Virus record (IMG/VR): IMGVR_UViG_3300036859_000155
Coordinates: 1 to 41,268 of that record
DNA length: 41,268 nt
From: a virus
Lineage: Duplodnaviria > Caudoviricetes
Strand: one strand, 5' to 3'
In this document: in pieces, positions 3,011 through 19,128 of the stretch
Numbering within the stretch: position 1 is the first letter of the stretch
Layout of the letters: the number at the start of each line of letters is the position of its first letter
Program-made: the position numbers and the translations under genes
Notes under the pieces: model-generated
Told to the model about the DNA's origin: nothing
What the model saw: only the letters and a program-made list of their open reading frames with translations
The model's database searches: none

Positions 3011-3186
3011 TGGCTGCTACCGCTGGTGTCCAGGCGTATGAGGCCAGCCAAAAACTCAGAACGGGAACCCGGAAGCCCGCCACAACCGACGAACCGGGTA
3101 CGATGGTTCCCCGCGGCAAGGTTCGGGCGAACTTCAAGATCGGGAATGTTCCCTCGCCGCAAGTCCCGCGCTATGGCGCGGTTTGA
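3010..3186 (+). CDS. Small basic protein, 58 aa, partial paralog of upstream gene
   Basis: Not in ORF track; TAATG coupling; MAATAGVQ...VPRGKVRANF...RYGAV. Confidence 0.65.
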   Translation: MAATAGVQAYEASQKLRTGTRKPATTDEPGTMVPRGKVRANFKIGNVPSPQVPRYGAV

Positions 3187-3212
3187 CGAAACTTCCGATC
3201 ATCTGATATACT
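3183..3212 (+). promoter_or_regulatory. Sigma70-type promoter of tRNA array
   Basis: TTGACG-18nt-TATACT with TG extension, ~7 nt before the first tRNA. Confidence 0.8.
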
Positions 3213-3219
3213 GATCCCT

Positions 3220-3289
3220 GCGGTGGTTCTCCTGGGAGAGAACCGAGCCTCCAAAACTCGTTCAGTCGGTTCGAATCCGGCCCGCCGTG
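3220..3289 (+). tRNA. tRNA-Trp(CCA)
   Basis: Acceptor gcggtgg/ccgccgt, loop ct-CCA-aa, T-loop ttcgaat; atypical D-arm. Confidence 0.85.
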
Positions 3290-3290
3290 C

Positions 3291-3362
3291 TCACCAGTAG
3301 CTCAACAGCAGAGCGTCCGTCTGATACGCGGGAGGCACCAGGGGCAGCACCTGGTTGGTGAA
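3291..3362 (+). tRNA. tRNA-Ile(GAT)
   Basis: tcaccag/ttggtga, D-stem gctc/gagc, ct-GAT-ac; non-canonical T-loop ggcagca. Confidence 0.8.
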
Positions 3363-3364
3363 CG

Positions 3365-3436
3365 TCAGCAGTGGTGTAATTGGCAGCACAAGAGGCTCTG
3401 AACCTCTTAGTTCGGGTTCGATTCCCGGCTGAGGAT
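3365..3436 (+). tRNA. tRNA-Gln(CTG)
   Basis: agagg-ct-CTG-aa-cctct, T-loop ttcgatt; two acceptor-stem mismatches. Confidence 0.85.
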
Positions 3437-3437
3437 C

Positions 3438-3506
3438 GGCCTTGTGACTTCGGAAGCGGGAGCCTTTCGTAAGGGTTCCAACGCGGTTCGACTCCGCGCT
3501 CGGCCT
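3438..3506 (+). tRNA. tRNA-Thr(CGT), atypical
   Basis: ggagcct-tt-CGT-aa-gggttcc, T-arm cgcgg-ttcgact-ccgcg, minimal D-arm. Confidence 0.7.
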
Positions 3507-3507
3507 C

Positions 3508-3575
3508 GCCAGAGGAGATGGACTCGGAAGTCACTTGTAACGACTTCCTTCTCAGTTCGATTCTGAGTTCTGGCT
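3508..3575 (+). tRNA. tRNA-Thr(TGT), atypical
   Basis: gccagag/ttctggc, ggaagtca-ct-TGT-aa-cgacttcc, T-arm ctcag-ttcgatt-ctgag, minimal D-arm. Confidence 0.7.
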
Positions 3576-3576
3576 C

Positions 3577-3649
3577 TGCGCGTTGGAGGAGAGGTTGCCT
3601 CGGAGGGCTCATAACCCTCAGACGTGGGATCGTCGGCCCACACGCGCTA
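3577..3649 (+). tRNA. tRNA-Met(CAT), initiator-like
   Basis: gaggg-ct-CAT-aa-ccctc (three G-C pairs), 1:72 mismatch; T-loop atcgtcgg. Confidence 0.8.
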
Positions 3650-3650
3650 C

Positions 3651-3734
3651 GGAGGGCTCTGCTGCATGGGCGGCAACCGGCGTCGAATACCGGGGTGGCG
3701 GGAACGCCAGGGGTTCGATTCCTCAGCCTCTCCG
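3651..3734 (+). tRNA. tRNA-Ser(CGA)
   Basis: ccggc-gt-CGA-at-accgg, long variable arm tggcg/cgcca, G discriminator. Confidence 0.85.
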
Positions 3735-3735
3735 C

Positions 3736-3807
3736 TGAGCGTGGCGGGCCTAGTGGCCCAGCAGTTCTTATAAAGCTGCGAGCCGAGTGCGATCCTCGGG
3801 CGCTCTA
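3736..3807 (+). tRNA. tRNA-Ile(TAT)
   Basis: gcagtt-ct-TAT-aa-agctgc, T-arm ccgag/ctcgg, acceptor tgagcgt/gcgctct. Confidence 0.75.
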
Positions 3808-3808
3808 C

Positions 3809-3879
3809 TCTAGGCTCGCCAATTGGCAGGCATGGAGGCTTTGAACCTCCCGATGCTGGTTCGAATCCAGCGCCTAGAA
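3809..3879 (+). tRNA. tRNA-Gln(TTG)
   Basis: Canonical cloverleaf: tctaggc/gcctaga, ggagg-ct-TTG-aa-cctcc. Confidence 0.92.
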
Positions 3880-3880
3880 C

Positions 3881-3950
3881 GCCCTTCGTGCCGGACGCAC
3901 AGGCAGGACTTCTAATCCCGCCAGGCGGAGTTCAACTCTTCGGAGGGGCG
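3881..3950 (+). tRNA. tRNA-Arg(TCT)
   Basis: gcccttc/gaggggc, ct-TCT-aa, T-loop ttcaact, short D-arm. Confidence 0.8.
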
Positions 3951-3951
3951 C

Positions 3952-4024
3952 GTGCGTGTAGCCCAACGGTAGAGGCACCGGCGTCAAGACCCGGCCAGTG
4001 TGGGTTCGAATCCCTCGGCGCACA
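3952..4024 (+). tRNA. tRNA-Leu(CAA), short variable loop
   Basis: gtgcgtg/ggcgcac, tagcccaacggtagaggc D-arm, gt-CAA-ga. Confidence 0.85.
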
Positions 4025-4025
4025 C

Positions 4026-4098
4026 GGGATCGTCGTCCAACGGCTAGGATCGCCGCCTTTTAAGCGGAGTGATGAGGGTTCGAATCCTTCCGGTCCCA
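4026..4098 (+). tRNA. tRNA-Lys(TTT)
   Basis: gggatcg/cggtccc, ccgc-ct-TTT-aa-gcgg, T-loop ttcgaat. Confidence 0.85.
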
Positions 4099-4099
4099 C

Positions 4100-4166
4100 G
4101 ACTGCGAGCCGAGTGTAGACAGGGATTGCAACCCCCTGGACGTGGGCGCGACTCCCACCGCAGTCT
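4100..4166 (+). tRNA. tRNA-Cys(GCA), D-arm degenerate
   Basis: gactgcg/cgcagtc, tt-GCA-ac, U discriminator, T-stem gtggg/cccac. Confidence 0.75.
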
Positions 4167-4167
4167 C

Positions 4168-4233
4168 TCCCTCGGGATAGACCGATGCGGCTCTCCTAAA
4201 GCCGCTGCCCAGGTGCGATTCCTGGCGGGGGAA
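4168..4233 (+). tRNA. tRNA-Arg(CCT), D-arm degenerate
   Basis: tccctcg/cggggga, gcggct-ct-CCT-aa-agccgc, T-stem ccagg/cctgg; only 66 nt. Confidence 0.75.
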
Positions 4234-4279
4234 CATATTATCGCACGGTGCGAGAAATGGGGCACTTGCGAGAAAAGAT

Positions 4280-4353
4280 GTGACCCAACCCAAAGAGTGC
4301 GGGGGGATGGCTGTGAACCATCTCGCTAGTGGGTGCGACTCCCACGGGCCACC
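4280..4353 (+). tRNA. tRNA-His(GTG)
   Basis: gtgaccc/gggccac, gatgg-ct-GTG-aa-ccatc, C discriminator. Confidence 0.75.
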
Positions 4354-4675
4354 AACTAGGCGTGTTCTTCAGCGTGACAGTTCGCACACATAAGAACACA
4401 ATTCTTCAATTCCTGCTCGATTTCTTCCCAGGACTTAGTGTAGGATTCATTGATCCCAAATTTCTTGATTCCGTGATGATGGGCGTGAAGAGCAGCGAGG
4501 CATTTTTTGTATCCACAGCGCAGACATTCCCCACCCAGATATAACACGATCCGCTCTTTGAGGGCACGCCGCTTCTTCTTGAAGTGTTCGCGTTGATACG
4601 CTCTATGAACCGCTGGGTCTTTGTAGGGCATTGGGTTATAAGTATAGCATATAACCCAATAACGGGCCACCCTAG
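4344..4675. mobile_element. Candidate HNH insertion cassette bounded by a direct repeat of the tRNA-His 3' end
   Basis: acgggccacc at 4344-4353 and 4662-4671, each followed closely by ctag; 11-bp inverted repeat 4630-4640/4650-4660. Confidence 0.6.
4356..4631 (-). CDS. HNH endonuclease (start reassigned to MPYKDP)
   Basis: CLRCG...LHAHH...CVLMCANCHAEEH; ATG at 4631 lies 9 nt after TG-c-TATACT. Confidence 0.85.
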   Translation of the reverse strand: MPYKDPAVHRAYQREHFKKKRRALKERIVLYLGGECLRCGYKKCLAALHAHHHGIKKFGINESYTKSWEEIEQELKNCVLMCANCHAEEHA

Positions 4676-7188: not shown

Positions 7189-7602
7189 ATGGCTAAGCGC
7201 CCTAAGTGTCAGCGCTGTGGAACCGACCAGGAGGTTTACTGGAACAGGATTAGACGGTGTTGGCAATTGTGTCGCCCATGTAATTCTCTTCGGGGGAAGG
7301 AATATAGATCCCGCAAGCGTTCCGAGGGGATTGTTGTGGGGTCGGAGTGGGCGCGGTGGAATGGAAGAAAAAAACTTGGGGTAAGCAAGGAAGAATTCTT
7401 GCGGTTGCTGGGTGAGCAGGGCAGCCTTTGTGCTATCTGCGGTGCATGGATTGATGAATCTGCTCACGTAGACCACGATCACGAGTCTGGAACGGTACGC
7501 GGACTCCTCTGTCGGGCCTGCAACGTTGGCCTAGGGCAATTCGGAGATGATCCGAAGAGGCTCGTTCTTGCAGCCGAGTACCTGCTGCGTCCGAGGGGGT
7601 GA
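7189..7602 (+). CDS. Endonuclease VII-family (homing-type) nuclease
   Basis: CAICG...HVDHDHESGTVRGLLCRACNVGLG. Confidence 0.92.
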   Translation: MAKRPKCQRCGTDQEVYWNRIRRCWQLCRPCNSLRGKEYRSRKRSEGIVVGSEWARWNGRKKLGVSKEEFLRLLGEQGSLCAICGAWIDESAHVDHDHESGTVRGLLCRACNVGLGQFGDDPKRLVLAAEYLLRPRG

Positions 7603-10212: not shown

Positions 10213-13200
10213 TTGGACCCGAACGATCTGAAGGCTATCCTGACGGTAGCCCCCTACTCTAGCCCCGGCGTCGCATACGGGGCCGCTTCTTCGTCGTCCC
10301 CCGTTCGCAACATCGCCGCAGTGACAGCATTTCAGGAGGGCATGTACCTCCGAGATAAACTCTCGCGCCTCGACAACCGCCATCAGTTCTCCGCGTGGGA
10401 GTCCATGAATGAGGCCCAGCACAGCATTCTGCTTCGCATGGGTTACACCCCTCCCCATCTCCTGCCCGACCATCGCGCCTGGTGGCAGAAGACCCTTGGC
10501 GCTATCGGCGGTGGCATCAAGGCGGGTATCACCACCGCAGAGTCGGCCATAGCGGGAGCGGGGGGCGGAATCGCCGTCGGCACCACTCTTGCCGCTCTCG
10601 CGGCTGCTCCCTTTACGGGTGGGCTCTCCCTTGCCGTTGCTGCGGGGTTCGGCGCTGCCGCTGGCGCAGCAGTGGGTGGAGCTTATGGCGCCGCTCGCGG
10701 AATGCACAAGGTAGCGCAGGGCGAGGCGGGATATCTGTCCGGATTCGGTATTCCCTATGAAGACATGAAGCAGGTCTACCGTACCACCAAGTTGCTTGCT
10801 AGGGATGCCTCGGCTGGTAAGAACCTGTGGGACTGGTCGGTAGATGAGTGGGCGAAGAAGTGGCGACAGGCAGGCGACGACATTCCTGACTTTTTTGAAG
10901 ACCCGCATAAGGCGCTAGAAACTATGCGGATCGAGGTTGACCCCGAACAGGTAGACATGGCGGTTGACATGGTGGGCGGTTCAACCGAGTGGGACTTGTA
11001 CGGCAAGTACGGTATCGAAAAGACCCAGGCCGCATTCGGAAACCCGAACTTCGACAAGGCGTTCAAGGCCCTCTCGCAGATTCAGATTTCTCCCGGTCGA
11101 GGGTTGATGCTTGCGCTTGGACTGAAGCCCCTATCGAAGCCTTTCGACTTGCTCTCCGGTTCGATAGACGGCACCCTGGCTTTCTTCGCTGACCCCGGCA
11201 TGCGCGCAGACAAGGGCATCAAGGGAATCCAGGGACTCCGCGCTATGCGCCATGTTGTCAAGGACGCCTCCTCGGTAGACGTGATTATGAAGGGTGCCGC
11301 AGGACGCCGCAAGGCATTCCGTATCGCGCAGCACTTTCAAGAGGGAGGCCGGGGGCTCAACGGAGTCCTGGATGAGATGCCGGAACTGCGTGGTCTGGCC
11401 GACGACCTGCATAAGTACCGTCCCAACACCGCCGAAAAGGTTGTCGAACTTCTGAAGATGAATGCTGGCCTGACGGCGGTTCTGGATGGTCGCTCCGCAA
11501 ATCAGATTGCTCGCCTGACGCACTTGCCCACACTGTCACGCATGAAGCAGTTCCAGGTTGCCGTGCGCCAGGGATGGATCAGGGGATTCGAGAAACTAGA
11601 GAAGGCGACAGCGGAGATTCCCGTTCTAAGTAAGGCCGCCAAGGCTCCTCGCCGTCTGACCTACCTAATTCACGTCGGCACCGAGATTCCCCGCGACAAC
11701 GCTCCTGCGACAGTCGAACGACTGAAGGCGCTGCTCCGCATCGGCACCACGCAGGAGACAGAAGACAAGATCGTGATGGCCTGGTTCGATGCTACTGCCG
11801 CGGGCAAGGAAGACATCGTTGAGGGTGCGATTCGTTCGGCTGAGGCCAGCCTGGGACACAACCGGGAGATTGGTTCATACCTCAGTGAGGTTCTGAACCG
11901 AATCAATCAGGACAGGGCACTTCGTAATGCGGGTATCGCCGGAGACGACCTGTCGTCGGTCAGCATGAAGGGCGCTCGCAGGCGCAACCTGCCGACCACC
12001 GAGAAGGAAATCTCCGGGCCTATCCAGATTCCGAGCTTCCGCGCCATGCTGAAAGCGCATCGAGAGGTTGCCGCGTGGCGGCAGGTGAAAGGAATCCGCA
12101 GCCTGCCCTGGGGCCTGACCGACAGGCTGATTCAGGGCGTGTGGAAGCCGGTCGTGTTGTTGCGTCTAGGATTTCCGCTGCGCGTCGGTGGAGAAGAGGC
12201 CACCCGCGCCATCCTGGAAATCGGTATTGGTCGGTATGCTCGCGCTCGCCTCGCGGGAACGGCCATGAAACGCATGGCTTACCTCGCTAAGAGGCTGAAT
12301 GTCTCGGAATCCGAGGCAACCTTCCTGTCCTGGGTCGCGGATAAGACTTCTACCGCCGTGGGAGGCTTGGCTTATGGCCTAGCGGGAGAGTCCTACATCA
12401 AGGCGGCGAAGACGGCCGCTGAGATGTTCGGCTATGACAAGCTTACTGCTCCAATGATCCGCGCAGGTCGCGACGCCGCAGGTTTCCTGGATCGGGGCGA
12501 GTCGGTGATGGTTCGAATCGCTCGCGGCGATGGTGAATATGACTACGCGCGCATGAACCCCACCAAGCGACGCAAGGGCTACATGCCCGGCGATCAACTC
12601 CACACCTACATCCGCCAGCGCGAACTCGCTTTCCATGTGGACGAGCCCTCCATGCAGATCGTCCTGCGGAACGTGGATGACCGGGAGCGGGGGGTTCGTG
12701 AACTCACCGAGTACCTGGGCCACCAGGATCAGGTAGGACTGCGGGACATCGCCGACCGTTCACGACTGACCGCCTATGGCAAGCGTGTCGGGGTGGACAT
12801 TACGCCGGAGGGGGCGCTGCGCGATTGGGCCGAGCACCTATACGACTCGCAGTATAGCCTCCTCCAGGGTGACATCGGTGTTGTCCAACAGGAGATAGTG
12901 GACTCGCTTCGCAAGGGCATCGTGCCGAGCTACGAAGAACTGGAGAAGCTGGGCGGCGGTGCGGTCTACGGTCAGGAGATGATCCCGGTGAAGTCCTCCT
13001 CGTGGGAGGAGATTGTCAACCGGGGGTTCGGCCCGCTCGAGCGCATCATCAACTGGATCGCCCGCGAGCCTATCTTCATTCACGAGTTGGCCGTGGCGCA
13101 GAATGAACTGCGCCCGATTCTCGGAATGCTCCAGGGCGTCACCGCCGCCGAAGAGAAGAAAGGCTTCCTGGCGAATCCAAAGGTCGTCCCCTCAAAGAAC

Positions 13201-15279
13201 GTGTGGTTCCACGGCAGCAGGCGGGAGTTCGAGCAGTTCGCCACAAAGGGTTACCAGTTCCCTACCGGCCCCGGATTGCGTCGTCACGCCAGCGGTGACG
13301 ACATGAATGCTCTCCTCGGGGCGCACTTCACCGACGAGTACGACGTTGCTGCTGAGTTTGGAAACATAGAAGACATCCGGGGTGCGCGCTTGTCTATCGC
13401 CAGGCCGCGTATCTATCTCTCGGAGAATGCGCTCACGAACGAACTCTATCAATTCGGCAGGGACAGGGGTTATGTCTCCAAGAAGGGAGAAATCCTGCCC
13501 GAGGTTAGCGGTGTTGGTGGTGCTGATTGGAAATTCCAAGAGATGAAGATGCATGGACTCGGGGGTGAACAGAAAGAACGTCTGGCGCGCGAGTTCGTGA
13601 CACATCTGGAGTCCCGTGGATACGATGGCATACTCTACAAGAACGACGTGGAGGGCGGAAACGCCGCTATCGTCTTTCATACCCGCCAGATCAAGTCCCC
13701 CGTCAACCATCTCCCCCTGTTCGACGCTGAGCGGGTGGCCAACGAGCGCGCTGTGGAGTTGGCCTGGCAGAGGATGTATCCCTTCATCCACCGTACCGAG
13801 ATTCGCTCACAGGCAGCGGTGGCGCTGAGGAACTGGATGCCGTTCTACCACGCCCACCAGCAGTGGTTGATCCGTTGGGGCAAGACCTTCCTGCGTACCC
13901 CAACCGCTGCACGCAGAGCGCAACTCTACATGATGGGCCTGCGACACGCGGGCGTGATCCATCGTGACGAGGAGACGGGCGAGGAATACTTCATCTATCC
14001 GATGACCGGCTTCGTCCAGACGGTCTTGGAGAAGGCCGCGAGCACAATCACGGGACGTGACGTGAGTCTTCCGGTTCCGGTTCGACTCACCGGACGGGTC
14101 AAGATGCTCACGCCGGGACTCCACGGCCCGCTGGGTGGCATCGCGCCCTCGTTCGGTCCATTGATGGCCGTCTCGACGCATATGATGAAGGTTCGCTTCC
14201 CTGAGTTCTCCGCCCAGCTAGAAGAGGCAGCAGAGCAGCGCAAGGTTCCCCTGTGGGAACAGCTTGTGCCAACTACCCTTACGCGATTGGTCAAGACCTT
14301 CTTCGCCGATGCCGACAAAGACGCTCAGTTGATGTCGGCCATCAACCAAGCACAACTCTACCTGGAGGCTAACGGTCAGGGACTCAAAGAGAACCCCACG
14401 CCGAATGAGAAAGACGAGTACCAGAGTCGCGTTCAGACCTGGGGGCGTTCATTCCTGCTGCTGCGCGCCATCTATGGATTCGTTGGTCCCGCTGCGCCGC
14501 AGCCCGAGTTTCACGCAAACCTGGCGAAGGACTTTCAGCGTCTCCTGCGAGTCATGCCCTACGAGGATGCGCTCGGTGAGTTCATTCGCCGCAACCCGGA
14601 TGGCACTCCCTGGACAGTCTTCCCCACGGAGAGTCTGACTGACCGCGTGCTGAATCCCGACGCGCAGGTGGGTAAGTGGCTGCGCTCCAATAAGGCGCTT
14701 CTCGGGAAGTACGGTGCTGCTGCTGCTTGGCTGATTCCTCCCACCCAGGACAAGTTCGACTACAATACCTACCTAGAGGAATTCGCTGTCGGCCTGCGCC
14801 GTCGCCGTACACCCGAGGAACTCTGGAAGGCGGTCAAGGTTCGAGTGGCCTCGGAGAAATACTTCCCCGTGCGCGACGAGCGAGACGCGGCTCTGGCCGG
14901 GGCGCAGAACGCCTCCCAGCGCCGATTCATCATGGACGCCTGGGATGCCTGGAAGACCGGGTTCTTCAATACCCACCCCATCTTTGCCGAATATCTGACC
15001 TCCGGTGGCGAACGCGCACGCCAGCGCAACGAGCAGATCGAGAGTGTCAGGCAGATGTTGGTAGACCCCAAAGTCCCCAATGTCTACAAGTCCCCGCTGC
15101 TTCCTGTGCTAGAGGCGTATAATCTGTACCAGCAGGCTGTGGCTGACCTGGGGCGCACCGACGCGGAGCGGAAATACAAGCAGCAAGTTCGCACCGCGCT
15201 GATGGCCTGGGGGGCTTCGCTCGACAACGATGTGTCGAGACAGTTCTTTCGGGCATTGATCCTACCAGACCTGGAGTAA
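10213..15279 (+). CDS. Large internal virion/ejection-type protein with ADP-ribosyltransferase-like insert
   Basis: 1688 aa; N-terminal Gly/Ala hydrophobic hairpin; WFHGS...GAHFTD...GYDGI...IVF...QIKS at ~13198-13698. Confidence 0.75.
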   Translation: MDPNDLKAILTVAPYSSPGVAYGAASSSSPVRNIAAVTAFQEGMYLRDKLSRLDNRHQFSAWESMNEAQHSILLRMGYTPPHLLPDHRAWWQKTLGAIGGGIKAGITTAESAIAGAGGGIAVGTTLAALAAAPFTGGLSLAVAAGFGAAAGAAVGGAYGAARGMHKVAQGEAGYLSGFGIPYEDMKQVYRTTKLLARDASAGKNLWDWSVDEWAKKWRQAGDDIPDFFEDPHKALETMRIEVDPEQVDMAVDMVGGSTEWDLYGKYGIEKTQAAFGNPNFDKAFKALSQIQISPGRGLMLALGLKPLSKPFDLLSGSIDGTLAFFADPGMRADKGIKGIQGLRAMRHVVKDASSVDVIMKGAAGRRKAFRIAQHFQEGGRGLNGVLDEMPELRGLADDLHKYRPNTAEKVVELLKMNAGLTAVLDGRSANQIARLTHLPTLSRMKQFQVAVRQGWIRGFEKLEKATAEIPVLSKAAKAPRRLTYLIHVGTEIPRDNAPATVERLKALLRIGTTQETEDKIVMAWFDATAAGKEDIVEGAIRSAEASLGHNREIGSYLSEVLNRINQDRALRNAGIAGDDLSSVSMKGARRRNLPTTEKEISGPIQIPSFRAMLKAHREVAAWRQVKGIRSLPWGLTDRLIQGVWKPVVLLRLGFPLRVGGEEATRAILEIGIGRYARARLAGTAMKRMAYLAKRLNVSESEATFLSWVADKTSTAVGGLAYGLAGESYIKAAKTAAEMFGYDKLTAPMIRAGRDAAGFLDRGESVMVRIARGDGEYDYARMNPTKRRKGYMPGDQLHTYIRQRELAFHVDEPSMQIVLRNVDDRERGVRELTEYLGHQDQVGLRDIADRSRLTAYGKRVGVDITPEGALRDWAEHLYDSQYSLLQGDIGVVQQEIVDSLRKGIVPSYEELEKLGGGAVYGQEMIPVKSSSWEEIVNRGFGPLERIINWIAREPIFIHELAVAQNELRPILGMLQGVTAAEEKKGFLANPKVVPSKNVWFHGSRREFEQFATKGYQFPTGPGLRRHASGDDMNALLGAHFTDEYDVAAEFGNIEDIRGARLSIARPRIYLSENALTNELYQFGRDRGYVSKKGEILPEVSGVGGADWKFQEMKMHGLGGEQKERLAREFVTHLESRGYDGILYKNDVEGGNAAIVFHTRQIKSPVNHLPLFDAERVANERAVELAWQRMYPFIHRTEIRSQAAVALRNWMPFYHAHQQWLIRWGKTFLRTPTAARRAQLYMMGLRHAGVIHRDEETGEEYFIYPMTGFVQTVLEKAASTITGRDVSLPVPVRLTGRVKMLTPGLHGPLGGIAPSFGPLMAVSTHMMKVRFPEFSAQLEEAAEQRKVPLWEQLVPTTLTRLVKTFFADADKDAQLMSAINQAQLYLEANGQGLKENPTPNEKDEYQSRVQTWGRSFLLLRAIYGFVGPAAPQPEFHANLAKDFQRLLRVMPYEDALGEFIRRNPDGTPWTVFPTESLTDRVLNPDAQVGKWLRSNKALLGKYGAAAAWLIPPTQDKFDYNTYLEEFAVGLRRRRTPEELWKAVKVRVASEKYFPVRDERDAALAGAQNASQRRFIMDAWDAWKTGFFNTHPIFAEYLTSGGERARQRNEQIESVRQMLVDPKVPNVYKSPLLPVLEAYNLYQQAVADLGRTDAERKYKQQVRTALMAWGASLDNDVSRQFFRALILPDLE

Positions 15280-17821: not shown

Positions 17822-18694
17822 ATGGCTGTAACAACTACGACCACAGCCGCCGAGCTACTCTTCGCTGAGTGGGTCAGCGCGTTTGTGATCCCCAACCTGT
17901 ACGCCTTCACGGCGGCTATTCCTTATTCGCGTCACGAGGACATGAACGGCAAGCCCGCGAAGGTTGTGTCGTGGCCCGTGGCCCCGGCCCTGACTTCGGC
18001 TGGCCTCACAGAGGGCACCGATGTCGCGCCCACCACGATCAGCGTTACGACCCAGGTACAGGCCACTCTGTCGGAAGTCGGACTCGGAATCGAGTTGACC
18101 GACCTTCTGCTGGAGTCGGACATCCTGTCGTCGGCAGACTGGTACAGCCGCCAGATGCTCCAGGCGAACGAGGTCAAGGTCAACACCGATACGACCGCGC
18201 TCTACACCGGATTCAGCACCATCGTCGGTGGTGGTGCGGCGCTGTCGGAGGCGAATTTCCTCGACGCGATCAACAAACTGGAGCAGGCTAACGCCCCGAA
18301 GCCCTTCGTCGCTGTTGTCAAGTCCAAGAACATCGGCGACCTGCGTTCGGCGCTGGCGGTTCCCGCCACGGCTGCTCTCCAGAAGTTCTCTGGAGGTCAG
18401 GACTTGGAGGCCAAGACGCGCGCCTACGGACCCGTCAACGCGGGTCAGGCGTTCGAGCACTTCGGCGTGCCGATCTTCAACGACAACACCATCACCACGA
18501 CCGACGCGGGCGTGAACAACGGAAACGCTGTTTACTCCTCGGAGTTCGCGCTGGGTTATGCCCACAAGTGGCAGAACCGCGTGGAGCTTCAGAGGCGCGC
18601 TGTCGGACGCAGCACGGCTGTTGTCCTGAGCACGGCAAAGGCTGAAGCTGAACTCAAAGATGCGGCTGGCGTCCTCTTGAAGGCCGCTGTGTAA
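17822..18694 (+). CDS. Major capsid protein
   Basis: 290 aa after scaffold; HK97-like features LTEGTD, KLEQANAP, FGVPIF; strong codon bias. Confidence 0.85.
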   Translation: MAVTTTTTAAELLFAEWVSAFVIPNLYAFTAAIPYSRHEDMNGKPAKVVSWPVAPALTSAGLTEGTDVAPTTISVTTQVQATLSEVGLGIELTDLLLESDILSSADWYSRQMLQANEVKVNTDTTALYTGFSTIVGGGAALSEANFLDAINKLEQANAPKPFVAVVKSKNIGDLRSALAVPATAALQKFSGGQDLEAKTRAYGPVNAGQAFEHFGVPIFNDNTITTTDAGVNNGNAVYSSEFALGYAHKWQNRVELQRRAVGRSTAVVLSTAKAEAELKDAAGVLLKAAV

Positions 18695-19128
18695 TGCCTC
18701 GTCCTAGCGTGGAAGCACTGTCTGGGGAGCGCGAGGCTCCTCGGGCAGTGCTTCTAGCACGAGAACGAAGACGTAGGTGGCGGGAGAAGAATCCTGATTA
18801 CATGCGTCAGTATCGAGCGGATCATCCTGAGAAATGGATATTCCCGCTGACCGAAGCCCAGCGAGAATCCAAGCGACGCTGGGATCGCAAGAACCGCAGG
18901 CTGAAAAACGCACAAAGGCGAACACGGGAGCGGAGAGCCGGGGGATTCAGTACGGCGACCGATGTCGCTGCCAGGATGTCCTTCTGGGGCTACCGCTGTT
19001 GGAGATGTGGTGGTCCCTTCGAACACGTAGATCACGTAATTCCGCTGGCGCGTGGTGGAACTAACTGGCCCGCGAATTTACGCCCATCATGTGCCCATTG
19101 TAACTTGTCGGCAGGAGGGAGATTGTAG
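18694..19128 (+). CDS. HNH endonuclease
   Basis: CWRCG...HVDHVIPLARGGTNWPANLRPSCAHCN. Confidence 0.92.
   Translation: MPRPSVEALSGEREAPRAVLLARERRRRWREKNPDYMRQYRADHPEKWIFPLTEAQRESKRRWDRKNRRLKNAQRRTRERRAGGFSTATDVAARMSFWGYRCWRCGGPFEHVDHVIPLARGGTNWPANLRPSCAHCNLSAGGRL

Follow-up and report, generated by a model that had tools for sequence, protein, structure and literature searches.

Phage tRNA arrays are already known, and so are phage tRNAs that resist the nucleases of bacterial defence systems. As far as its accessible text goes, the genome announcement of the cluster BF Streptomyces phages counts tRNAs and tests codon fit, leaving structure unmentioned (PMC9753666), and the available part of a study of nuclease-resistant phage tRNAs mentions neither the D-loop, the T-loop nor the stem (PMC10264068). 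In bacterial tRNA, G18 and U55 are treated as near-universal, and an anticodon stem of 6-7 bp with a tiny D-arm has been described for tRNA-Pyl and for mitochondria. Here we describe an array of 15 tRNA genes in a complete 41,268-base virus record from an uncultured soil phage (IMG/VR record IMGVR_UViG_3300036859_000155, the whole of which is called the window below). Phage tRNAs for ordinary amino acids appear to break both rules repeatedly and in a compensated way, and standard annotation partly misses such genes. Five genes of the array are compact, and in five the elbow pair is A18·G55 instead of G18·U55. On balance, we think that the array is charged and used in translation, probably as a set of replacements evading host nucleases.

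Several described systems bear on these two traits. The fold shared by tRNA-Pyl and mitochondrial (mt) tRNA-Ser(UCN) has a gap of 0-1 nt between acceptor and D-stem, a D-loop of 4-5 nt, a 6-bp anticodon stem and a 3-nt variable loop, and in M. alvus tRNA-Pyl the connector is absent (PMC7609411). Synthetic ZtRNAs (Sakamoto and Hayashi 2018) combine a Pyl-type core with a canonical GG/UUCRA elbow, are active in E. coli and are possibly charged by the endogenous GlyRS and GlnRS (PMC6337575). In riboswitch T-loops of the YGNRA type, an intercalated A is bonded to the G at position 2 (bioRxiv 2022.12.26.521914). The Schlafen nuclease Cash, which belongs to type III CRISPR systems, cleaves many tRNAs on the 5' side of U55, at the motif UUC; in its accessible part, the paper does not settle whether phage tRNAs are among its substrates (PMC13462974).

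The 15 genes are co-oriented on the + strand within 1134 bp (positions 3220-4353), in the order of Table 1 from Trp to His, so that many genes share one dense segment of a mobile genome, as in other phage tRNA arrays. The spacer is a single C after the discriminator at 12 of the first 13 junctions and CG at the remaining one, and 46 nt precede His; this long spacer (4234-4279) contains a short hairpin, possibly a remnant. No further tRNA was found on the + strand after 4400, and the whole - strand gave one stray parse. The putative promoter in front of the array matches at 10 of 12 positions, and three sites of this kind occur in 1.9 kb, versus 0.4 in shuffles. Default ARAGORN reports 10 of the 15 genes and two of the five short ones, while its mitochondrial mode reports all five short genes. 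The Rfam tRNA model RF00005 matches four array genes and none of the short ones at E<=10. Chance is ruled out, our custom parser giving 11 tRNAs in the region versus 0 in each of 100 mononucleotide shuffles. One contig spans the region at a depth of 54 with no alternative letters and without sign of misassembly; this contig is probably the source of the record, and contigs drop rare variants.

Counted from +1 to the discriminator, Thr(CGU), Thr(UGU), Arg(UCU), Cys(GCA) and Arg(CCU) have the 66-70 nt (Table 1) given by the original prediction, which had been made from the sequence alone. None of the five has the standard core, that is, U8, a 2-nt connector, a D-stem of 3-4 bp with a loop of 7-11 nt and a 5-bp anticodon stem. 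The distance from acceptor to anticodon loop is 18-21 nt, versus 22-24 in the other ten genes; 3-6 nt are lost from the connector and D-arm and 1-3 anticodon-stem pairs are gained, a trade-off known from tRNA-Pyl and mt-tRNA-Ser(UCN). The anticodon stem has seven pairs in Thr(CGU), seven below an A·C in Thr(UGU), six at seven positions in Arg(UCU), six in Arg(CCU) and five below an A·C in Cys. The predicted extension to 6-7 bp thus stands in terms of positions (6-8), Cys having five pairs below its A·C. D-arms had been called tiny or absent: tiny they are, but none need be absent, each gene being able to form a hairpin of 2-4 bp with a 3-5 nt loop. In the minimum free energy (MFE) folds of Thr(UGU), Arg(UCU) and Arg(CCU) this hairpin starts at position 8, directly after the acceptor; in Cys and Thr(CGU) the D-arm was placed by eye only. 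The variable region measures 2-3 nt. As had been noticed, T-stems (5/5 in all five genes) and most acceptors (7/7 except in Thr(CGU), 5/7) stay paired. Each gene has a 7-nt anticodon loop with U33 and a purine at 37.

The deviant T-loops ascribed to these genes require a correction. Two of the five quoted loops belong to short genes (cgcgact in Cys, tgcgatt in Arg(CCU)), while ggcagca is that of Ile(GAU) (3291-3362, outside the range covered by the prediction), atcgtcgg that of Met and tgcgatc that of Ile(UAU), all of standard length. A sixth odd T-loop, in His (4280-4353), had not been listed. Since only two of the five quoted loops belong to short genes, two separable traits had been merged. 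Arg(CCU) (4168-4233) combines both in a single gene.

The proposal that a minimal fold is under selection rather than decaying was followed through covariation among homologues, and compensatory changes were found in both Arg families. A pattern built on the BF Arg(CCU) gene retrieved 23 viral loci, 22 of them with a short Arg gene, and a pattern from the window Arg(UCU) retrieved 12 viral loci on contigs of up to 447 kb. Window Arg(UCU) (3881-3950), with a 7-position anticodon stem and a 3-nt variable loop, belongs to the latter family. In the window gene and eight viral ones (two duplicates, two 69-nt genes and locus L044 being left out), 96.6% of 207 cells are paired, versus 37-48% in slid controls. 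Two-sided changes occur at 14 of 23 pairs (0 of 500 shuffles), including all seven anticodon-stem pairs and, among these, the two extension pairs (GC6/AU3; AU4/CG3/GC1/UG1). The 67-nt Arg(CCU) family (12 genes, two of which came from searches with an unconstrained D-stem) is 95.2% paired, with two-sided changes at 14 of 21 pairs and at 6/6 anticodon-stem pairs. One D-stem pair also changes on both sides, and the D-stem starting at position 8 varies between GTG/CGC, GTG/CAC and GCA/TGC. This count was made without 68-nt variants, duplicates and the window's 66-nt Arg(CCU), whose gap was misplaced by MAFFT. In the pooled loci, pair 26-44 is formed in 64/79 short versus 125/469 standard tRNAs, and U8 is present in 12/79 versus 418/469.

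The compact fold is also accessible in cultured phages. A 67-68 nt Arg(CCU) is present in all 11 arrays examined from cultured cluster BF Streptomyces phages and a short Ala(UGC) in 10 of the 11, being 68 nt in those ten and 72 nt in Manuel. In BF Tyr(GUA) (arrays L001, L003-L012), a long variable arm accompanies a 6-bp anticodon stem and a short D-arm beginning at position 8. Among cellular genomes, three of 185,579 species genomes contain an exact match to the Arg(UCU) pattern. In the Capsulimonadaceae metagenome-assembled genome (MAG) G002, a 70-nt short Arg(UCU) lies 20 nt after Gly(UCC) in a housekeeping locus (G002:C13, about 431710-431871). No other Arg(UCU) is among the 43 ARAGORN calls, which cover the stretches with 43 Rfam matches and the short Arg(UCU) locus; Val(UAC) and Leu(UAA) are also not among the calls, and the completeness of the MAG is not given. 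Among relatives (12 of the other 29 loci, tRNA-like by eye), 11 have Arg(UCU), seven beside Gly(UCC), and the ten parsed are canonical genes of 73-74 nt. The G002 locus is the best sign that the compact fold may decode in a cell. Just beyond the short gene, on the opposite strand, lies a 286-aa cysteine-rich open reading frame (ORF) that looks like an HNH protein by eye and has no Pfam match.

Some observations weigh against extending this result to all five genes. The D-arm is uninformative in the Arg(UCU) covariation because it was fixed by the search pattern, the window's own Arg(CCU) stands outside the count for its family, and shuffle and Fisher values are not probabilities because the sequences are related. 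Viral and metagenome scans gave no close homologues of Thr(CGU), Thr(UGU) and Cys, only analogues. The seven viral loci of the Thr scan comprise four true 68-nt genes (three unique) and three standard genes matched out of register, none close to the window Thr genes, and both metagenome loci are standard 71-nt genes. In Thr(CGU) the acceptor is mismatched at two positions, G2-C71 replaces C2-G71 and the MFE fold is not a cloverleaf; that this gene alone is decaying is unlikely, though this deserves consideration. For the compact fold as a whole, the two Arg families lead us to consider selection very probable.

The second trait is a coupled exchange in the elbow. By eye, all five G55 genes of the window (Ile(GAU), Ile(UAU), Cys, Arg(CCU) and His) have an AG D-loop and all ten U55 genes a GG one. 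A18·G55 therefore occurs in 5 of the 15 genes, two of them short, and G19 and C56 are kept in all. An independent test scanned viral contigs for the G55 T-arm with the D-loop unspecified, giving at least 121 loci and 200 unique parsed tRNAs. Among the loci listed, AG accompanies G55 in 110/116 tRNAs (five have GG and one is unassigned), while U55 goes with GG in 78/80 and with AG in 2/80; four tRNAs have C55. A cruder test on the same loci, counting any GG in the D region, gives 25/116 for G55 versus 78/80 for U55. The coupling holds in G55 tRNAs without the searched motif (58/62) and after removal of near-duplicates (91/97), and in the 23 listed loci that contain both kinds AG is found in 43/46 G55 and GG in 64/65 U55 tRNAs. 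Locus L191 of the Thr scans, where an AG D-loop meets U55, is an exception. Because positions 18 and 55 are coupled and the riboswitch structures give a basis for the pair, the odd T-loops appear compensated, not decayed.

In four large phage records (G004-G007, 120-275 kb) the exchange extends to most of the tRNA set. Each has about 40 G55 T-arm motifs, and G55 with AG is found in 30/34, 34/38, 31/35 and 34/37 parsed tRNAs, covering 19-20 amino acids; some of these tRNAs are also short. The U55 exceptions in two of the arrays (L185, L186) are Met(CAU) and one Asn. Conversion of a whole set would be explained by a pressure acting on a motif common to all tRNAs. In the viral loci retrieved with the BF Arg(CCU) and window Arg(UCU) patterns, 298 of 299 unique tRNAs keep U55, so the short fold can do without the swap.

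The array tRNAs are likely used in translation. The identity elements that we checked, taken from the accessible list in PMC9976931, are largely kept: A20, C35, U36 and A/G73 in Arg, U73 in Cys, G1-C72 in Thr and U1-A72 in Gln, while Thr(CGU) is without the C2-G71 identity pair. In a cyanobacterial array, 23 of 26 tRNAs are charged in vivo, so that array tRNAs can work, although this is no test of the window genes (PMC8421152). The idea of functional mini-tRNAs thus receives indirect backing, both from these elements and from the MAG in which the short form is the only detected Arg(UCU). We hypothesize that the array is transcribed from a single upstream promoter and that RNase P would cut at each +1, leaving upstream tRNAs that end in N73-C74, a substrate for the CCA-adding enzyme. 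Pairs lost from the D-stem would be replaced in the anticodon stem, keeping the L-shape, and A18 would intercalate into the YGNRA T-loop in a riboswitch-like manner. With G55, and with A54 or C54, the T-loop would no longer offer Cash-type Schlafen nucleases their UUC motif. The tRNAs would then be charged and used in place of host tRNAs, being poorly recognised by the tRNA-cutting defences of the host.

Six of the 15 T-loops (those of the five G55 genes and Met) are without UUC, all six keeping C56, and these genes are therefore changed at a motif required by a defence nuclease, as is characteristic of nuclease-resistant phage tRNAs. The toxin escape suggested in the original prediction is plausible for the elbow swap, given the UUC specificity of Cash, whose cutting is abolished by single mutations at U54 or U55 (PMC13462974); we put the chance that nuclease escape is the cause of the swap at about even. 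The same cause for the short fold is rather doubtful, and one published case points the opposite way. Phage Thr tRNAs resist OLD through shorter, not longer, anticodon stems, which rules out escape from OLD by a longer stem (PMC12445682). A second bacterial Schlafen acts on the anticodon arm, and a phage tRNA may be a better substrate for it than the tRNA of the host (PMC13056530).

Further points count against nuclease escape. UUC is kept in 9 of the 15 genes, three of the five short ones among them, which leaves most of the array open to a broad T-loop nuclease. Certain anticodon loops are also cleaved by Cash, at UC, and the enzyme was characterised from a Chloroflexi bacterium (PMC13462974). 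UUC stands inside the anticodon loops of window Arg(UCU) and Thr(CGU). The retention of U55 in nearly all tRNAs of the short-fold loci also belongs here, as does the homology of the four large-phage arrays (67-77% identity), because of which the four conversions probably represent one event or lineage. It is tempting to propose, tentatively and as a somewhat less than even prospect, that A18·G55 is a general phage counter to T-loop-cutting nucleases such as Cash, with which some large phages rebuilt nearly full sets for 20 amino acids, while actinobacterial-type phages add a Pyl-like mini scaffold charged by ordinary synthetases.

The tRNAs could also be working molecules whose shapes have nothing to do with defence. 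They would supplement scarce isoacceptors, and the fold and elbow would be tolerated alternatives, fixed by drift, by genome compaction or by release from the enzymes that modify T-loops (pseudouridine 55 not being required). Loss of a T-loop integration site used by mobile elements is another conceivable effect of the swap. Many anticodons of the array serve codons of minor use in the phage genes. Over 10,811 codons in 38 ORFs, AUA accounts for 8% of its own amino acid, AGA for 7%, AGG for 12%, UUG for 14%, ACA for 12%, AAA for 20% and CAA for 26%. Such anticodons fit the supplementing of scarce isoacceptors as well as the replacement of toxin targets. The short genes are mostly minor isoacceptors, under weaker constraint, the array is extremely compact, and the short Arg(UCU) is tolerated in a cellular genome (MAG G002). 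Codon matching is moreover the published reading for BF phage tRNAs, as far as the accessible text goes (PMC9753666). However, G55 has to be accompanied each time by a change at position 18, and such pairs are found again in many isoacceptors, reaching about 85-90% of a set of 34-38 genes. Because the paired change recurs across the isoacceptors of one genome, drift is hard to credit and a single pressure on a common motif fits. We regard shapes unrelated to defence as unlikely but as a serious contender.

Stable RNAs that do not translate, acting as decoys for tRNA toxins or synthetases or as processing marks in the primary transcript, would suit the loss of U8, the connector and most of the D-loop, and the failure of the Rfam model on all five short genes. 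Decoys would also suit the Actinomycetales MAG G003 (L175:1473-2794), in which a short Arg(UCU) precedes the RNA ligase gene rtcB (Pfam RtcB, E 1e-111) by about 80 nt, in a context of RNA damage and repair. Nevertheless, anticodon loops, discriminators and A20 fit the cognate amino acids, a decoy would be expected to keep the motif recognised by the nuclease and not to lose it, and in MAG G002 no Arg(UCU) other than the short one was found. Decoys, which had been offered as an alternative from the outset, thus gain little, and we consider non-translating RNAs improbable. Decaying pseudogenes would explain the two acceptor mismatches in each of Thr(CGU) and Gln(CUG), the weak D-stems of Cys and Thr(CGU) and folding z-scores of only -1.2 to -1.7 for Thr(CGU), Cys and Arg(CCU), a weak test that does not discriminate, as canonical Lys scores -0.5. 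Against this stand the two-sided changes in homologues, which largely refute decay for the Arg genes, the exact 18-55 coupling, the exact one-base spacers and the intact promoter-like site; general decay is hardly credible. Selection in place of decay is thus supported for the two Arg families, through compensatory changes, and for the odd T-loops, through covariation of D-loop and T-loop, with Thr(CGU) as the gene that may be decaying on its own.

Among the genes of the window are those for terminase, portal, capsid, holin, endolysin and replication (ORFs compared with PHROGs). One sequencing run, of soil metagenome DNA and probably the source, contains the window. We infer an actinobacterial host because a WhiB protein is found among its ORFs (Pfam), TTA is nearly absent (1% of Leu codons in phage genes) and the terminase is closest to that of Streptomyces cluster BF phages, its nearest cultured relatives by this protein, at 26% identity. 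A PHROG label of 'sporulation protein' was dropped as a host clue, Pfam giving a CAP domain. The match to an N4-type capsid is weak. The window array lies upstream of the terminase gene, while BF arrays lie between tail and scaffold genes, and the two do not align over their whole length. The phage seems to bear only a distant likeness to Beephvirinae (cluster BF). BLAST of the array against cultured phages matched single tRNAs only. Terminase queries (single or as an alignment) against viral and metagenome contigs gave no confirmed locus with a close relative's homologous array; the relatives at 51-62% identity are proteins only. An HNH endonuclease gene (4356-4670, -) lies directly beyond the array on the opposite strand. 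Endonuclease VII-type genes follow the terminase and capsid genes (7189-7602 and 18694-19128, respectively), and an ORF of 1688 aa in the structural region (10213-15279) has no PHROG or NCBIfam match.

Table 1. Genes of the tRNA array and the promoter-like site in front of it (window coordinates).
Feature	Positions	Strand	Remarks
Sigma-70-type promoter-like site (putative)	3183-3212	+	TTGACG, 18-nt spacing, extended -10 TATACT; ends 7 nt before the first tRNA
tRNA-Trp(CCA)	3220-3289	+	70 nt; G18G19/UUC elbow
tRNA-Ile(GAU)	3291-3362	+	Standard length; T-loop G54-G55-C56, D-loop A18-G19
tRNA-Gln(CUG)	3365-3436	+	U1-A72; two acceptor mismatches
tRNA-Thr(CGU), short	3438-3506	+	69 nt; 7-bp anticodon stem; acceptor 5/7; MFE fold non-cloverleaf; weakest member
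tRNA-Thr(UGU), short	3508-3575	+	68 nt; connector 0; D-stem 3 bp, D-loop 5 nt with GG; seven anticodon-stem pairs below A·C
tRNA-Met(CAU)	3577-3649	+	Standard length; 8-nt T-loop with A54 and U58
tRNA-Ser(CGA)	3651-3734	+	Long variable arm; resembles tRNA-Ser of mycobacteriophage cluster C (about 85%)
tRNA-Ile(UAU)	3736-3807	+	Standard length; T-loop UGCGA, D-loop A18-G19
tRNA-Gln(UUG)	3809-3879	+	U1-A72; canonical
tRNA-Arg(UCU), short	3881-3950	+	70 nt; connector 0; D-stem 4 bp, 5-nt loop with G18-G19-A20
tRNA-Leu(CAA)	3952-4024	+	Without long variable arm
tRNA-Lys(UUU)	4026-4098	+	Canonical
tRNA-Cys(GCA), short	4100-4166	+	67 nt; U73; weak 2-bp D-stem, A18-G19; T-loop C54-G55
tRNA-Arg(CCU), short	4168-4233	+	66 nt; 2-bp D-stem, 5-nt loop with A18-G19-A20; 6-bp anticodon stem; T-loop UGCGA
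tRNA-His(GUG)	4280-4353	+	C73; T-loop UGCGA, D-loop A18-G19; after the 46-nt spacer

Other members of the array have peculiarities of their own. Its single CAU gene, which we take to be initiator-like from the U1·U72 mismatch and the three G-C pairs next to the loop, stands alongside Ile(UAU), a tRNA that is rare in bacteria. The reversed T-loop pair of this Met gene (A54 and U58 instead of U54·A58) is shared by the JXY1-type Phe gene (L004:1697-1768), and the JXY1 Phe gene with this T-loop is annotated as a pseudogene in GenBank. Besides window Leu, BF phage Leu(UAG) has no long variable arm. Window Leu and Ser have in common the start of the anticodon arm (CCGGC-G32) and a 31-39 mismatch. 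Position -1 of His is T, not G.

A literature search, with most subscription papers outside it, gave no account of the compact fold or of the A18·G55 elbow in phage tRNAs. A paper on the tRNAs of cluster M mycobacteriophages and the D/T-loop selections of the Steinberg laboratory, which reportedly discuss purines at 18 and 55, may anticipate part of these results. If our reading is true, phage tRNA counter-defence extends from the anticodon to the elbow, natural compact scaffolds exist for genetic-code work, and phage tRNA counts are underestimates. For each G55/A18 gene, the U55/G18 form of that tRNA would serve as an internal control.

In summary, the locus can be placed beside each of the described systems. 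BF arrays (Beephvirinae: Dennebes, Stella, FlowerPower, Manuel and others) are alike in belonging to phages of about 45 kb with one tightly packed tRNA segment and in having C after the discriminator in 207 of 217 parsed genes (11 arrays); they differ in terminase, gene set and position, and their T-loops keep U55. The tRNA-Pyl fold, as far as it is given in the accessible text, is closely matched by Arg(CCU), Cys and Arg(UCU), while the Thr genes have 7-8 stem positions and a 2-nt variable region (PMC7609411). tRNA-Pyl itself differs by its CUA anticodon and PylRS. The short genes instead have CGU, UGU, UCU, GCA and CCU anticodons with Thr, Arg and Cys identity elements and stems of up to seven pairs, and would need ordinary bacterial synthetases; comparison of 42 ORFs with PHROGs and of 14 window ORFs with Pfam gave no dedicated synthetase. 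Type I mt-tRNA-Ser(UCN) keeps G18G19 and TΨC, as do window Thr(UGU) and Arg(UCU), but only the fold is common, the window being a phage contig with terminase, portal and capsid genes. ZtRNAs are engineered amber suppressors, of which the window genes appear to be natural counterparts (PMC6337575). In the riboswitch study, FMN and cobalamin riboswitches have UGNRA/CGNRA T-loops, and tRNA T-loops, with U at position 2, fall outside the YGNRA consensus; the window places such loops inside tRNAs, UGCGA three times and CGCGA once (bioRxiv 2022.12.26.521914). Finally, like the phage tRNAs that rescue from PARIS, retrons and OLD, the window genes differ from host tRNAs at a site that a defence nuclease reads; in the cases described in the accessible text this site lies in the anticodon loop or stem, whereas here it is a compensated tertiary elbow pair together with a changed core (PMC10264068).

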